Source of the DNA: Escherichia coli
Lineage (GTDB): Bacteria; Pseudomonadota; Gammaproteobacteria; Enterobacterales; Enterobacteriaceae
Reading direction: 5' to 3' (one strand)
Assembly (NCBI RefSeq): GCF_003018115.1
Contig: NZ_CP027457.1
Length of the DNA stretch: 64,000 bases
Position 1 is the stretch's first letter, and the number at the start of each line of letters is the position of its first letter. The notes beneath the pieces were generated by a model. It was given only the letters and a program-made list of their open reading frames with translations, was not told the origin of the DNA and ran no database searches. Made by a program: the position numbers and the translations under genes. This document shows, in pieces, positions 25,001 through 34,000 of the stretch.

Positions 25001-28000
25001 AGCTGCCAAATACAAAAGCGGAAAGCATCGCCTGGAATGAAGATCAAAAAGGAATTTATACCGCAACGTATACCGCCTTACTCCCTGGCACCGGTTTAAA
25101 AGCACAGCTACAGATGTCCGGCTGGGCGAACGCTCTGACTTCAAATGATTACAGTATTAGTGGCGATGCCGCCAGCGCACAAATTGTCGCGATGCAAGTG
25201 ACAACGGGTAACCCGGATGTGCTGGCAAATGGCAGCGATCGACATACGGTGAATGTCCGGGTGGAAGATCAGTTTGGCAATGTGCTGCCGGAGCAGACCG
25301 TCACCTTTACGGTGACGAAGGGGGCGGCTGTATTTGCCAATGCAGGGCAGAGCGCAGATATCAGGACGGATGCGCATGGTATGGCAGAGGTTGATCTGAG
25401 CAGTACCGTAGCGGATGCCAGCACTGTTGAGGCTAAGGTCAATCAAAGCAGCGATAGTAAAACGGTGAACTTTGTTGCTGATGTCAGCACGGCGCAGATC
25501 GCTGATCTGGTGGTCATTAAGGATGGCTCAGTGGCAGACGGTTCGACGGCGAACACGCTGCGGGTGAGGGTGACGGATGCGTTCGGTAATGCGCTGGGCG
25601 GGCAGACGGTCAGCGTGTTGGCGGACAACAGCGCAACGGTCGCTCCGACGGTTATCACCGAGCCGGACGGGACGGTGGAGATCTCTGTTACCAGCCAGAC
25701 GGCGGGAGTCAGTGCGGTCACCGCCAGTATCAACAACAGCAGCCTGAGCCGGAACGTGACGTTTGTTGCCGATGTCAGGACGGCGAAGATCGCTGATCTG
25801 GTGGTGATGCAGGACGGCTCAGTGGCAGATGGCACGACGGCGAACACGCTGCGGGCGAGGGTGACCGATGCGTTCGGCAATGCGCTTGCCGGGCAGACGG
25901 TCAGCGTGACTGCAGGCAACAGCGCAACGGTCGCTTCGACAGTGACCACAAAGCCGGACGGCACGGTGGAGATCAGTGTCACCAGCCAGACGGCGGGGAT
26001 CAGTACAGTCACTGCAACCATCAACAGCAGCAGTCAGAGCCGGAACGTGACGTTTGTCGCGGATGTCAGGACGGCGAAGATCGCTGATCTGGAGGTCATT
26101 AAGGATGGTTCAGAGGCGGACGGTGCGACGGCGAACACGCTGCGTGCGAGGGTAACCGATGCATTCGGAAATACGCTTGCCGGACAGACGGTCAGCGTGT
26201 TGGCAGGCAACGGCGCAACGGTCGCTCCGACGGTTATCACCGAGCCGGACGGGACGGTGGAGATCAGTGTCACCAGCCAGACTGCCGGAATCAGTGCAGT
26301 CACTGCAACCATCAACAGCAGTAGTCAGAGTCAGAACGTGACGTTTGTCGCGGATGTCAGGACGGCGAAGATCGCTGATCTGGAGGTCATTAAGGATGGT
26401 TCAGAGGCGGACGGTGCGACGGCGAACACGCTGCGTGCGAGGGTAACCGATGCGTTCGGCAATGCGCTTGCCGGGCAGACGGTCAGCGTGACTGCAGGCA
26501 ACAGCGCAACGGTCGCTTCGACGGTGACCACAAAGCCGGACGGGACGGTGGAGATCAGTGTCACCAGTCAGACGGCGGGGAGCAGTACAGTCACTGCCAG
26601 CATCAACAGCAGCAGCCTGAGCCGGGATGTGACGTTTATTGCGGATGTCAGGACGGCGCAGATCGCGGAGCTGGTGGTCATTAAGGATGGTTCAGAGGCG
26701 GACGGTGCGACGGCGAATACGCTGCGGGCGAGGGTGACCGATGCGTTCGGCAATGCGCTGGGCGGGCAGACGGTCAGCGTGTTGGCGGACAACGGCGCAA
26801 CGGTGTCTCCGACGGTTACCACAGAGTCGGACGGGACGGTGGAGATCAGTGTCACCAGCCAGACTGCCGGAATCAGTGCAGTCACTGCAACCATCAACAG
26901 CAGTAGTCAGAGTCAGAACGTGACGTTTGTCGCGGATGTCAGGACGGCGAAGATCGCTGATCTGGAGGTCATTAAGGATGGTTCAGAGGCGGACGGTGCG
27001 ACGGCGAACACGCTGCGTGCGAGGGTAACCGATGCGTTCGGCAATGCGCTTGCCGGGCAGACGGTCAGCGTGACTGCAGGCAACAGCGCAACGGTCGCTT
27101 CGACGGTGACCACAAAGCCGGACGGGACGGTGGAGATCAGTGTCACCAGTCAGACGGTGGGGAGCAGTACAGTCACTGCCAGCATCAACAGCAGCAGCCT
27201 GAGCCGGGATGTGACGTTTATTGCGGATGTCAGGACGGCGCAGATCGCGGAGCTGGTGGTCATTAAGGATGGTTCAGAGGCGGACGGTGCGACGGCGAAT
27301 ACGCTGCGGGCGAGGGTGACCGATGCGTTCGGCAATGCGCTGGGCGGGCAGACGGTCAGCGTGTTGGCGGACAACGGCGCAACGGTGTCTCCGACGGTTA
27401 CCACAGAGTCGGACGGGACGGTGGAGATCAGTCTCACCAGCCAGACGGCGGGCACCAGTGTGGTCACTGCCAGCATCAACAACAGCAGCCTGAGCCAGAG
27501 CGTGACATTTATTGCCGATGTCAGGACGGCGAAGATCGCGGATCTGGTGGTCATTAAGGACGGCTCAGTGGCAGATGGCGCGACGGCGAACACGCTGCGG
27601 GTGAGGGTCACCGATGCATTCGGCAATGCGCTTGCCGGGCAGACGGTCAGCGTGTTGTCGGACAACGGCGCAACGACTGCCCCGACGGTGAGCACAGAGC
27701 CGGACGGGACGGTGGAGATCAGTGTCACCAGCCAGACTGCCGGAATCAGTGCAGTCACTGCAACCATCAACAGCAGTAGTCAGAGTCAGAACGTGACGTT
27801 TGTCGCGGATGTCAGGACGGCGAAGATCGCTGATCTGGAGGTCATTAAGGATGGTTCAGAGGCGGACGGTGCGACGGCGAACACGCTGCGTGCGAGGGTA
27901 ACCGATGCGTTCGGCAATGCGCTTGCCGGGCAGACGGTCAGCGTGACTGCAGGCAACAGCGCAACGGTCGCTTCGACGGTGACCACAAAGCCGGACGGGA

Positions 28001-31000: not shown

Positions 31001-34000
31001 TTATCGCCGATGTCAGGACGGCGCAGATCGCGGACCTGGTGGTCATTAAGGACGGCGTAGTGGCAGACGGCGCAATGGCGAACATGCTGCGGGTGAGGGT
31101 CACCGATGCTAACGGTAATACGCTTGGCGGACAGACGGTCAGCGTATCGGCAGACAACAGCGCAATGGTCACTCCGACGGTGACCACGCAGCCGGATGGC
31201 ACGGTGGAGATCAGTGTCACCAGTCAGACGGCGGGGATCAGTACGGTCACTGCAACCATCAACAACAGCAGCCTGAGCCGGAACGTGACGTTTGTCGCGG
31301 ATGTCAGGACGGCGCAGATCGTTGATCTGGTGGTCATTAAGGACGACTCAGTGGCAGACGGTGCAATGGCGAATATGCTGCGGGCGAGGGTCACCGATGC
31401 GTTCGGTAATACGCTTGCCGGGCAGACGGTCAGCGTGACGGCAGGCAACGGCGCAACGGTCACTCCGACGGTCACCACGCAGCCGGACGGCACGGTGGAT
31501 ATCAGTGTCACCAGCCAGACGGCGGGGATCAGTACAGTCACTGCAACCATCAACAACAGCACCCTGAGTCAGAACGTGACATTTATCGCCGATGTCAGAA
31601 CGGCGCAGATCGCGAGTCTGGAGGTGACGCAGGATAACGCCGTGGCTGACGGCGCAATGGCGGATATGCTGCGGGCGAGGGTCACCGATGCGTTCGGTAA
31701 TGCGCTTGCCGGGCAGACGGTCAGCGTGATGGCGGACAACGGTGCAGCGGTCGCTTCGACGATGACCACAAAGCCGGACGGCACGGTGGAGATCAGTGTC
31801 ACCAGTCAGACGGCAGGAATCAGTGTGGTCACCGCCAGCATCAACAGCAGCAGTCAGAGCCGGGATGTGACGTTTATCGCCGATATCAGGACGGCGCAGA
31901 TCGCGGACCTGGTGGTCATTAAGGACGGCTCAGTGGCTGACGGCGCAATGGCGAACATGCTGCAGGTAAAGGTTACCGATGCTAACGGCAATGTGCTTGC
32001 CGGGCAGACGGTCAGCATGATGGCAGGCAACGGTGCAACGGTTGCCCCGACGGTGATTACAGAGCCGGACGGTACGGTGGAGATCCCTGTCACCAGCCAG
32101 ACGGCGGGAGCCAGTGCGGTCACCGCCAGTATCAACAGCAGCAACGCGAGCCGGAACGTGACGTTTATCGCCGATGTCAGAACGGCGAAGATCGCTGATC
32201 TGGTGGTCATTAAGGACGGCTCAGTGGCAGACGGCGCAATGGCGAACACGCTGCAGGTGAGGGTCACCGATGCGTTCGGCAATGCGCTTGGCGGACAGAC
32301 GGTCAGCGTGACGGCAGGCAACAGCGCAACGGTCACTCCGACGGTCACCACGCAGTCGGACGGTACGGTGGAGATCAGTGTCACCAGTCAGACGGCGGGA
32401 GTTAGCGCAGTCACAGCAACCATCAACAATCATAGCCTGAGCCAGAACGTCACCTTTGTACCGGGTGACGCATCGCAGCTCACTTCAACCGTTGAAACAA
32501 ATAAGTCTAACTACACGGTTGGAGAGACCATCACCATCACGGTAACGCTCCGGGATGCGTTCGATAATCTGGTAACCGGTGCAGCTTCACAGTTAGCCGC
32601 TAATAGTGTGCTGACGGTGGATGGCACCGACCCGTCAGAAACGGGAAGCTGGGTTGAATCAGGTGGCGTGTATACCACAACCCGAATGGCGACGATTGCC
32701 GGTAACGATCAGCACGCCAACCTGCAATTGCAGTCGTGGAGTGTTGGCGTAACGTCAGATCGCTATGACATACAGTCCGGTTCTCCGGCGCAAGCCACAT
32801 CAACTATCGCCACGGATAAAAACGCATACACCGCTGGCGAGACTATAACCGTCGCCGTGACGCTGAAAGATGCGCACGGTAACCTGGTTGAAGGGGGCGA
32901 GTCCTTACTGTCTGGTGATAACGTAACAGTGGAAGGAGCCGTACGTTCAGGAGAGTGGTCTGAAACTGCCGGTGTTTATACTGCTACATGGTCGGCGCAA
33001 ATGGCGGGAGACTCTCACCACGCGACGCTGACGTTGCCCGAGTGGGGCAGCAGTAAACAATCAGAGAGTTATTCCATCCACAGTGGTGCTCCGGTGCAGG
33101 CAAATTCTGCTATCAGGACAGATAAATCGGCATATATCGCCGGGGAGCCATTAACTGTCACAATAACGTTGCGGGATGAGTTTGGTAACCCTGCTTTAGG
33201 GCTGACATCAGAAGTCATCGAGTCTTATATCGATAATTTCGCGGTAGGTGGCGCAACTTCCGATTCTATGCAGTGGGTCGAGCAGAATAATGGTGAATAT
33301 ACCATTGTCTGGACAGCATGGGTTGCCGAGGAAAATCTGGTTGCCAGTCTGAAATTGAAAACATGGGCAACGGAGATTAAGTCCTCGTTATACGGAATAC
33401 AACCAGGTGCGGCGGAAAAAACTCAATCCACGATTGTCGCGGACAAAACGATATATATTGCTGGGGATAGCATAACGGTGACCGTTGTTCTTAAAGATGC
33501 CCAGGATAACTTTATTACTGATGGCGTTGTTCAGCTTAATGAGGAAAACGTACAAGTCAGGAATGCGGATCCTATCCAGGGCAATAATTGGGTTTACAAT
33601 GGCAATGGTATATATCAAAGACAGTATATGGCGCATTTTGCGGAAGCGAACTTGAATGCGCAATTGAAGATGACTGGTTGGAGCGATGCCAATTATTCAA
33701 ATAGCTACATGATTAAACCAGGTGAAGTAAGTATGCTTCGTTCACAGCTTCGTATACGCGAAGTTTTAGTGGTAGCTGGGGCGGATATACCTGTCAGTGT
33801 TTTATTAGCTGATGAATTTGGTAATCCTGTGAATGACGGTCTGGATTTGCTGACAGATGATGCAGTGTACTTACAAAATGTGGAAAAGAAACATTGGTCC
33901 AGTTGGACATTTGTAGGTGATGGCAGATATGAGCGTACCTATATGGCTTACAAAGAAGGAGAAAACTTAAACTCTTATCTACATATTAATGGTTGGTATG

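Follow-up and report, generated by a model that had tools for sequence, protein, structure and literature searches.

The tandem Ig-domain array of the Escherichia coli adhesin gene iatC (eaeX, air): a stalk very probably resized by in-register recombination

A 64,000-nt stretch of an Escherichia coli genome (assembly GCF_003018115.1, contig NZ_CP027457.1), called here the window, carries a tandem array of 24 units of 291 bp, some of them nearly identical and others strongly diverged. The locus raises the question of what such an array encodes, by what process and on what time scale it changes its length, and whether the number of copies in an assembly can be believed. The first-pass annotation of the window had taken the mixture of old and young copies as a sign of ongoing unequal recombination, and had expected the repeat number to vary between or within clones and to be unreliable in short-read assemblies. 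We find that the array is very probably the extensible stalk of IatC (also named EaeX or Air), an inverse autotransporter adhesin of E. coli, and that it is resized by in-register recombination. The features of the locus are collected in Table 1, and all positions are those of the window unless stated otherwise.

The array lies inside a single open reading frame (ORF), with which its start at 25465 is in frame (3438 nt, i.e. 1146 codons, from the beginning of ORF 22027-34599). The NCBIfam model NF040978 for the N-terminus of IatC, an equivalog-domain model of 1065 positions, is matched within the N-terminal 1146 aa at 3077.7 bits (cutoff 2400) over model positions 1-1065, and the first 3438 nt are at least 95% identical to a gene that 754 of the 5426 complete E. 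coli genomes carry under the annotation iatC or EaeX/Air. Pfam recognizes IAT_beta, 27 Big_1 stretches, Invasin_D3 and Invasin_D4 (the last with E = 1.7e-13) in the 4190 codons, with every immunoglobulin-like (Ig-like) domain located C-terminal to the barrel. A LysM domain has been reported for IatC (PMC6714894); the corresponding segment here is given in Table 1. The C-terminus aligns with residues 296-460 (D4-D5) of invasin in 1CWV (phmmer, E = 1.3e-17), and a separate C-type lectin model gave no match in the IatC C-terminal tip. Two array units align with D1-D2 of the same invasin structure (E = 3.5e-14). An AlphaFold model of two units is all-β, with two β-sandwich-like domains and a mean predicted local distance difference test score (pLDDT) of 76, and the structures that it matches best are those of intimin D0-D1, invasin, InvD and InvE. 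Because of the invasin alignments and these model matches, each 291-bp unit is predicted to encode one Ig-like stalk domain below a lectin-like tip. Purifying selection acts on the array units, between which the ratio of non-synonymous to synonymous substitution rates (dN/dS) is ∼0.31. Surface exposure of IatC and its promotion of biofilm formation have been shown experimentally for the SMS-3-5 allele (PMC6714894), and eaeX mutants have lower adhesion and form less biofilm according to the summary given in PMC7058095.

Tandem Repeats Finder reports one array (25480-32457) with a period of 291, 24.0 copies, 86% matches and 0% indels. Unit n starts at 25465 + 291(n-1), and the 24 units of 25465-32448 are all in frame, as the first-pass annotation had stated. 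The units are 80-100% identical in DNA, and when typed at no more than six mismatches they read, in order, I z x A b A N p A u A A. m 0 B E r y. s B D F. In the unit-by-unit identity matrix the differences between pairs are bimodal, with eleven pairs at 0-4 and the bulk at 25-59 of 291 positions, and old and very young copies do coexist. Units 4, 6, 9, 11 and 12 are mutually 99-100% identical. They are the five copies of the type ‘A’ unit (starting at 26338, 26920, 27793, 28375 and 28666), which are interleaved with related diverged units. Checked base by base, 26338-26850 and 26920-27432 differ only at 26576 (C) and 27158 (T), and perfect copies of the 234-nt segment 26331-26564 begin at 26913, 27786 and 28368, both as first described. 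The extent of the near-identical blocks had been understated at that stage: the near-duplicate spans 605 bp, exact repeats reach 504 bp, and there is a fifth ‘A’ copy. The longest exact in-register repeats are of 504 bp (26155-26658 = 28192-28695), 503, 455 and 417 bp, and the chance of a 504-bp exact match at a background identity of 86% is 0.86^504, or ∼1e-33. The fifth ‘A’ copy is unit 12, adjacent to the fourth and exact from 26350 onwards (26350-26804 = 28678-29132). This one-unit A-A duplication (units 11-12) is present in the window allele only and is absent from the loci of the compared genomes L001-L005. The 6-unit (1746-bp) offset also stands. Units 16 and 22 differ at 2 of 291 positions; in the wider alignment 29755-30209 has two mismatches to 31501-31955, and 30412-30653 has one to 32158-32399. 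What had to be corrected is the strand. An antisense translation had been assigned to the repeated segment, and that product is not the protein, the coding strand of the array being +. Coding on the minus strand was rejected, given the 4190-codon ORF on the + strand and minus-strand ORFs of at most 306 aa inside the array.

The number of units differs widely between lineages. Nineteen further loci taken from complete genomes yielded 15 more alleles, making 16 distinct alleles with the window. Their unit counts are 5, 10, 11, 14, 15, 16, 17, 18, 19, 20, 22, 24, 24, 24, 25 and 27, with proteins of 2347-4485 aa and all ORFs intact. In a whole-gene search, every difference in gene span from the window is an exact number of 291-bp steps. 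Gene nt 3438 is where the array begins in each of the 16 alleles, and the part following it is either 2151 nt (as in the window) or 2163 nt long. The last ∼430 nt of iatC (34170-34599) are too diverged for megablast in many alleles, where query coverage ends at 12143; this suggests exchangeable variants of the C-terminal tip. Near-identical unit pairs are present in 4 of the 16 alleles and in none of the other 12, and the lineage of the window is among the few with recent expansion of the array. The best flank identity to the window among the 5426 complete E. coli genomes is 99.6%, and an exact look-up of the 4190-aa protein returned no record. In the O139:H1 lineage of porcine enterotoxigenic E. 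coli (ETEC) the gene is a frameshifted pseudogene of 6416 bp with ∼3 units (strain W13-16, locus L025, 1501-7916, and 17 similar complete genomes); the adhesin is decaying in this lineage.

The products of recombination can be read by comparison with the nearest relatives of the window, which are the O169:H41 ETEC and GF3-3 lineages with 22-42 mismatches per 10 kb upstream. The order of units is I z x A b A N p A u A N. B E r y. s B D F in O169:H41 and I. b A N.. & m. 0 B D F in GF3-3. Unit 2 of GF3-3 is a perfect single-breakpoint chimera, in which the first 15 informative sites are those of window unit 2 and the last 10 those of unit 4, with the crossover located inside a 77-bp tract that is identical in window units 2 and 4. 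Single-breakpoint patterns of this kind make up ∼1.5e-6 of all possible patterns. Further along the same allele, window units 15/16 are joined straight to units 22-24, with units 16-21 missing and the junction inside a ‘B’ unit. The size of this deletion is the 6-unit, 1746-bp offset expected from the paired ‘B’ units 16 and 22. The O169:H41 allele shows two one-unit shifts relative to the window. Its units corresponding to window units 1-11 have 0-2 mismatches each. One of the two shifts has left, as unit 13 of this allele, a chimera between window units 14 and 15 that includes a conversion tract, a 108-nt patch identical to window unit 21. Elsewhere, NMBU_W05E18 differs from ECSC054 by an exact 10-unit duplication (2910 bp, 0 mismatches). 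The 582-bp near-duplicate of the window is shared base for base with five independent complete genomes; it therefore predates the split of these lineages, and is neither private to the window nor an artefact. The chimeric units, and the block indels that separate the window from its closest relatives, thus demonstrate in-register unequal exchange together with conversion, and the near-identical units flagged at first pass are real substrates for it.

Within clones the array is stable. Five O169:H41 ETEC genomes encode the same 22-unit, 3996-aa protein, with 31-kb loci that differ by 0-2 nt. The 16-unit allele of CFSAN061770 (10257 bp) was compared with the 129 records whose best match to it is at least 99% identical. 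In evenly sampled rows of that list the match is full length, in a single piece and 100.0% identical down to about rank 116, with humans, chickens and cattle among the hosts. The number of Big repeats in EaeX has likewise been reported to differ between strains and to be conserved within sequence type 69 (ST69) (PMC7058095). Lineages with identical flanking proteins sometimes differ (15 versus 16 units, and 19 versus 27 units). From stable clones with occasional variants it follows that the change occurs on the time scale of lineage diversification and not in cultures. Of the expected variation in repeat number, that between lineages is therefore borne out (5-27 units over 16 alleles), whereas variation within clones is not supported, the alleles of O169:H41 and of the 16-unit lineage being stable. 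Nor does the gene behave as a phase-variable contingency locus: 291 is a multiple of three and the frame is always kept, the ORF is intact in 16 of 16 alleles, and alleles are stable within lineages.

The copy number in databases is a separate matter, and here the warning about short reads was well founded. In a large collection, proteins with 100% identity to the N-terminus of the window protein are 1959 aa long, which is 1146 + 97 + 716 and corresponds to one unit. Among the matches listed, 40 of the first 47 have 1959, 1963 or 1964 aa, and many others are ‘partial’ EaeX/Air entries that end inside the array, one cluster of which has 1955 members. The matches listed for a search with the N-terminal 1146 aa include no protein longer than 2000 aa, though RefSeq has such proteins, and no length distribution can be derived from them. 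The contigs behind three of the one-unit proteins (L022, L023 and L024, with the gene at 10001-15880) are two Logan assemblies, of the Sequence Read Archive (SRA) runs SRR30617782 and SRR32746540, and one NCBI draft. Compared with the window the two Logan contigs have 1-2 mismatches per 10 kb upstream, 1-2 downstream and none in the unique parts of the gene, and they are effectively the same clone. In all three contigs the single unit is a clean chimera of window units 1 and 24, with a junction interval that differs each time and lies in tracts of identity between units 1 and 24 of at most 15-17 bp. No intact one-unit allele is present in the complete genomes, where the shortest is the ∼3-unit frameshifted pseudogene of O139:H1. 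Real one-unit alleles were considered and rejected on these grounds (three assemblies with three different junctions, short identity tracts and no example in a complete genome), and the one-unit contigs are the result of assembly collapse. The array of the window itself is largely corroborated, with 20 of its 24 units found in order in independent complete genomes. Five complete genomes, each assembled independently, contain units 1-11 and 16-24 at 0-3 mismatches apiece, apart from unit 20 with 16; in GF3-3, unit 14 is found without a mismatch and unit 15 with two. Unit 13 has a near match only, in the O169:H41 allele, with seven mismatches in one patch.

These observations are accommodated by the following mechanism. 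The N-terminal β-barrel would anchor IatC in the outer membrane, with the passenger forming a chain of Big_1 Ig domains that ends in the invasin-like D4/lectin tip. Misaligned homologous exchange between units would add or remove whole domains without breaking the frame, because the units are 80-100% identical and their length is divisible by three. The exchange may take the form of unequal crossing-over or sister-strand exchange, accompanied by gene-conversion patches, and its repetition would generate a mosaic in which old units that have diverged stand beside identical blocks of very young age. The main route is probably homologous recombination of the RecA type rather than slippage. A change of stalk length would alter the reach of the tip, and thereby adhesion or the formation of biofilm. 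Several points weigh against this reading. Goh et al. found no evidence that tandem repeats vary in number in IatC, from four complete genes only (PMC6714894). Unit 12, the extra ‘A’, has no counterpart in any other genome, and the count of 24 is that of the assembly by itself. We infer the direction of most events, gain or loss, by parsimony. Slipped-strand misalignment predicts the same in-register products, and some of the differences between alleles may come from imported DNA rather than from intragenic exchange.

That the near-identical blocks, or the count of 24, are artefacts of over-expansion or mis-joining in the assembly is very improbable. Exact repeats of up to 504 bp do exceed the length of short reads, the array is grossly misrepresented in public short-read assemblies of the same clone, and unit 12 lacks independent support; yet five complete genomes reproduce units 1-11 and 16-24, including four of the five ‘A’ copies, the 582-bp near-duplicate and both ‘B’ units, while GF3-3 contains units 14 and 15, and the ORF is intact. 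We give as little credence to a fast, contingency-like switch whose copy number changes often inside one clone or culture. Recombination does find good substrates in identical blocks of 300-600 bp, and lineages with identical flanking proteins can differ by one unit or by eight (15 versus 16, 19 versus 27). Against such a switch stand the single allele of five O169:H41 isolates, the identical 10257-bp allele in more than 100 complete genomes, the repeat number reported as conserved within ST69 (PMC7058095) and the 12 of 16 alleles that have no near-identical unit pair at all.

Two further explanations concern the route of exchange and deserve somewhat more weight. In E. coli, the deletion of tandem repeats a few hundred bp long can proceed independently of RecA, and gains and losses of units that are all in register and intragenic are also what slippage predicts. 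It is nevertheless doubtful that RecA-independent replication slippage or sister-strand misalignment is the main source of the events. The largest of them cover 6 and 10 units (1746 and 2910 bp), and they come with conversion patches whose source units lie eight positions away, which fits recombination better than local slippage; the mapped crossover sits in the 77-bp tract of identity. Slippage and homologous recombination are not mutually exclusive. Alternatively the differences between alleles could be mostly imported, with segments of the array and a C-terminal cassette exchanged between strains by horizontal transfer and homologous recombination. The gene is a mosaic in G+C content, with 54% for its N-terminal part, 61.5% across the array and only 40% at the C-terminal tip, the post-array part has two forms (2151 or 2163 nt) with a last ∼430 nt often too diverged for megablast, and window units 14-15 are shared with GF3-3 and not with the otherwise closer array of O169:H41. 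Import as the dominant process is unlikely all the same. Unit 13 of O169:H41, as a chimera of units 14 and 15, is better explained by local deletion, an origin within the gene is inherent in the exact 10-unit duplication and in the A-A tandem, and import without misaligned pairing would leave the number of units unchanged.

The array also differs from the rest of the gene in its synonymous base composition. The G+C content at third codon positions (GC3) is 0.755 in the array (25465-32448), as against 0.55 in 23347-25464 and 0.47 in 32449-33926, and 0.60 would be expected from the amino acid composition of the array. The same step is found in four other E. coli alleles. The E. albertii orthologue at the same locus (CP030781.2; L061, 3001-8910) has an array of its own, with six units of 309 bp (L061 5536-7402). 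These units are 98% identical to one another and are of a different Ig domain type, with ∼32% protein identity to the E. coli unit. GC3 is 0.76 inside this array and 0.44 outside, and the proteins of complete E. albertii genomes step by 103 aa (1660, 1763, 1866 and 1969 aa). As these steps occur in an unrelated array, variation in copy number has arisen independently in the two species. GC3 is higher inside than outside in 10 of 10 arrays of the gene family (sign test p = 0.002, with arrays that are not fully independent). At third codon positions among 208 unique units, 89% of rare variants are changes from G or C to A or T, compared with 62% of variants at 10-29% frequency (Fisher p = 0.007), which suggests a GC-favouring bias in the spread of unit variants. 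A GC-favouring bias linked to recombination, such as GC-biased gene conversion, may raise synonymous G+C in intragenic adhesin arrays, though we offer this only tentatively; a foreign origin of the amplified modules and codon selection are the alternatives. Among the matches listed (one genome per species), no relative of the 97-aa unit with more than 55% identity occurs outside E. coli, the best being from Rahnella, Pseudescherichia and Kluyvera, and therefore no donor of a GC-rich module can be named. Nothing relevant was found in the literature on GC-biased gene conversion in bacterial tandem arrays.

The gene is the same as that described as IatC, EaeX or Air in SMS-3-5 (EcSMS35_4024) and at the selC-B/eip locus of enteroaggregative E. 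coli (EAEC) 042, with the same position and domain plan (barrel, Big_1 repeats and lectin-like tip). Published IatC proteins have 2459-2965 aa (PMC6714894), and the window allele, with 4190 aa, is far longer. The closest general description is that of the Periscope proteins, single-chain surface proteins with tandem Ig-like domains of high DNA identity in strain-variable number. Homologous recombination has been proposed for the change in their repeat number, and the class explicitly includes inverse autotransporters (PMC9704523). The window array has 24 units at 80-100% identity (11 pairs with at most four differences and no indels), and the alleles range from 5 to 27 units. Individual folding of the repeats is predicted by the two-unit model (mean pLDDT 76), which is similar to the tandem Ig pairs found in intimin and invasin. 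A further property of the class, change of length inside a population, was not seen, with the identical allele in the five O169:H41 genomes and in the more than 100 genomes of the 16-unit allele. Classic Periscope cases are more uniform, as most IatC alleles have units that are only 80-90% identical; and for Alpha C and Rib length change within a host or clone is documented, whereas none was seen in the IatC comparisons.

Among relatives with the same type of barrel is another inverse autotransporter, YrIlm of Yersinia ruckeri, whose Ig-like repeats, each of ∼300 bp, number more than 20 in tandem and carry a C-type lectin cap. Its repeat number is strain-variable; only PacBio assemblies are right, and genomes from short reads give too few repeats (PMC6868369). 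With the YrIlm N-terminal model (cutoff 750) the window protein reaches 413.9 bits and is thus a different member of the family. The repeats of YrIlm are DNA-identical and underestimated 4-5-fold, whereas those of IatC collapse to a single chimeric unit. Intimin of enteropathogenic and enterohaemorrhagic E. coli (EPEC/EHEC) has a barrel of the same family, but IatC reaches 422 bits against a cutoff of 1400. Intimin and the invasin of Y. pseudotuberculosis have 4-5 diverged domains and, unlike IatC, no homogeneous array; their receptors are known (Tir and β1 integrins, respectively). Variation in the repeat number of EaeX (reported in 2020), the Periscope class and the repeat collapse in YrIlm are all published, and the finding as such is already known. 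As far as we found, only details are new, namely the range of 5-27 units, the crossover-level map and the one-unit database artefacts. The wider range of sizes contradicts the remark in PMC6714894 that IatC has no evident variability in repeat number.

The gene is located between nepI (upstream) and the convergent eilA, an arrangement that is the same in every locus fetched. Downstream of eilA there are type III needle-tip and translocon genes with a chaperone gene (the eip island), and tRNA-Sec lies ∼10 kb further on in the collinear F9792 genome, identifying the island as selC-B/eip. EilA has been reported to regulate genes within the selC locus, eaeX included (PMC7058095). A promoter scan of the 200 bp upstream of iatC revealed no sigma-70-like site on the + strand. 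A 24-bp AT-rich tandem repeat of 2.2 copies (36241-36291) is contained in the eilA coding sequence (minus strand), inside its first ∼105 nt. Just upstream of the island, between yicN and nepI, a RelE/ParE-family toxin gene overlaps a helix-turn-helix antitoxin-like gene (19747-20407, minus strand), with names transferred from collinear genomes. At a greater distance, two + strand genes (7694-10696) separate ilvN and uhpA, which are adjacent in K-12; neither gene matches anything in Pfam or PADLOC. Of the two, the second is intact (9257-10696, 479 aa), while the first, of 431 aa in F9792, is split in the window by an in-frame stop (7694-8044 and 8078-9001).

Table 1. Coordinates of the iatC gene, its parts, the repeated blocks of the array and adjacent elements in the window
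Feature	Position	Strand	Basis
iatC (eaeX, air), inverse autotransporter (type Ve) adhesin gene	22027..34599	+	single ORF, 4190 codons plus stop
N-terminal leader with weak LysM-like segment (aa 77-98)	22027..22470	+	Pfam LysM 17.7 bits, cutoff 20.9 (sub-threshold)
Outer-membrane β-barrel translocator IAT_beta (aa 149-423)	22471..23295	+	Pfam PF11924, E = 6.7e-108
Non-repeated Ig-like (Big_1 / Invasin_D3) part of passenger	23296..25464	+	Pfam; GC3 0.55
Array of 24 x 291 bp (24 Big_1 domains of 97 aa each)	25465..32448	+	Tandem Repeats Finder, identity matrix
Higher-order region, units 3-13	26047..29247	+	identity matrix, exact repeats
Tandem 582-bp (2-unit) near-duplicate, 26246-26850 versus 26828-27432	26246..27432	+	605 bp, one mismatch (26576 / 27158)
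A-A tandem, units 11-12	28375..28956	+	309-bp exact match at one-unit offset (28387-28695 = 28678-28986)
Unit 16, type ‘B’, upstream partner of 6-unit-offset repeat	29830..30120	+	two mismatches to unit 22
Unit 22, type ‘B’, downstream partner of 6-unit-offset repeat	31576..31866	+	two mismatches to unit 16
Non-repeated Ig-like domains after the array	32449..34053	+	Pfam; GC3 0.47
Invasin_D4 (PF21764, aa 4010-4065), then invasin-D5-like (lectin-like) C-terminal tip	34054..34596	+	Pfam, phmmer
Terminator-like hairpin between convergent iatC and eilA	34613..34636	+	ten-pair stem, T-rich tail; consensus match only
eilA, HilA-family regulator of the eip island	34649..36346	-	ORF and annotation in collinear genomes

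For work on this adhesin the consequence is that lengths of IatC/EaeX/Air taken from short-read genomes are untrustworthy, and surveys of prevalence, typing or vaccine antigens need long reads. In the databases many ‘complete’ proteins of 1959-1964 aa are collapsed arrays, and thousands of ‘partial’ entries are truncated inside the array. The current understanding of the protein is unchanged, and the published observations are extended with crossover-level detail. [quoted passage not shown]

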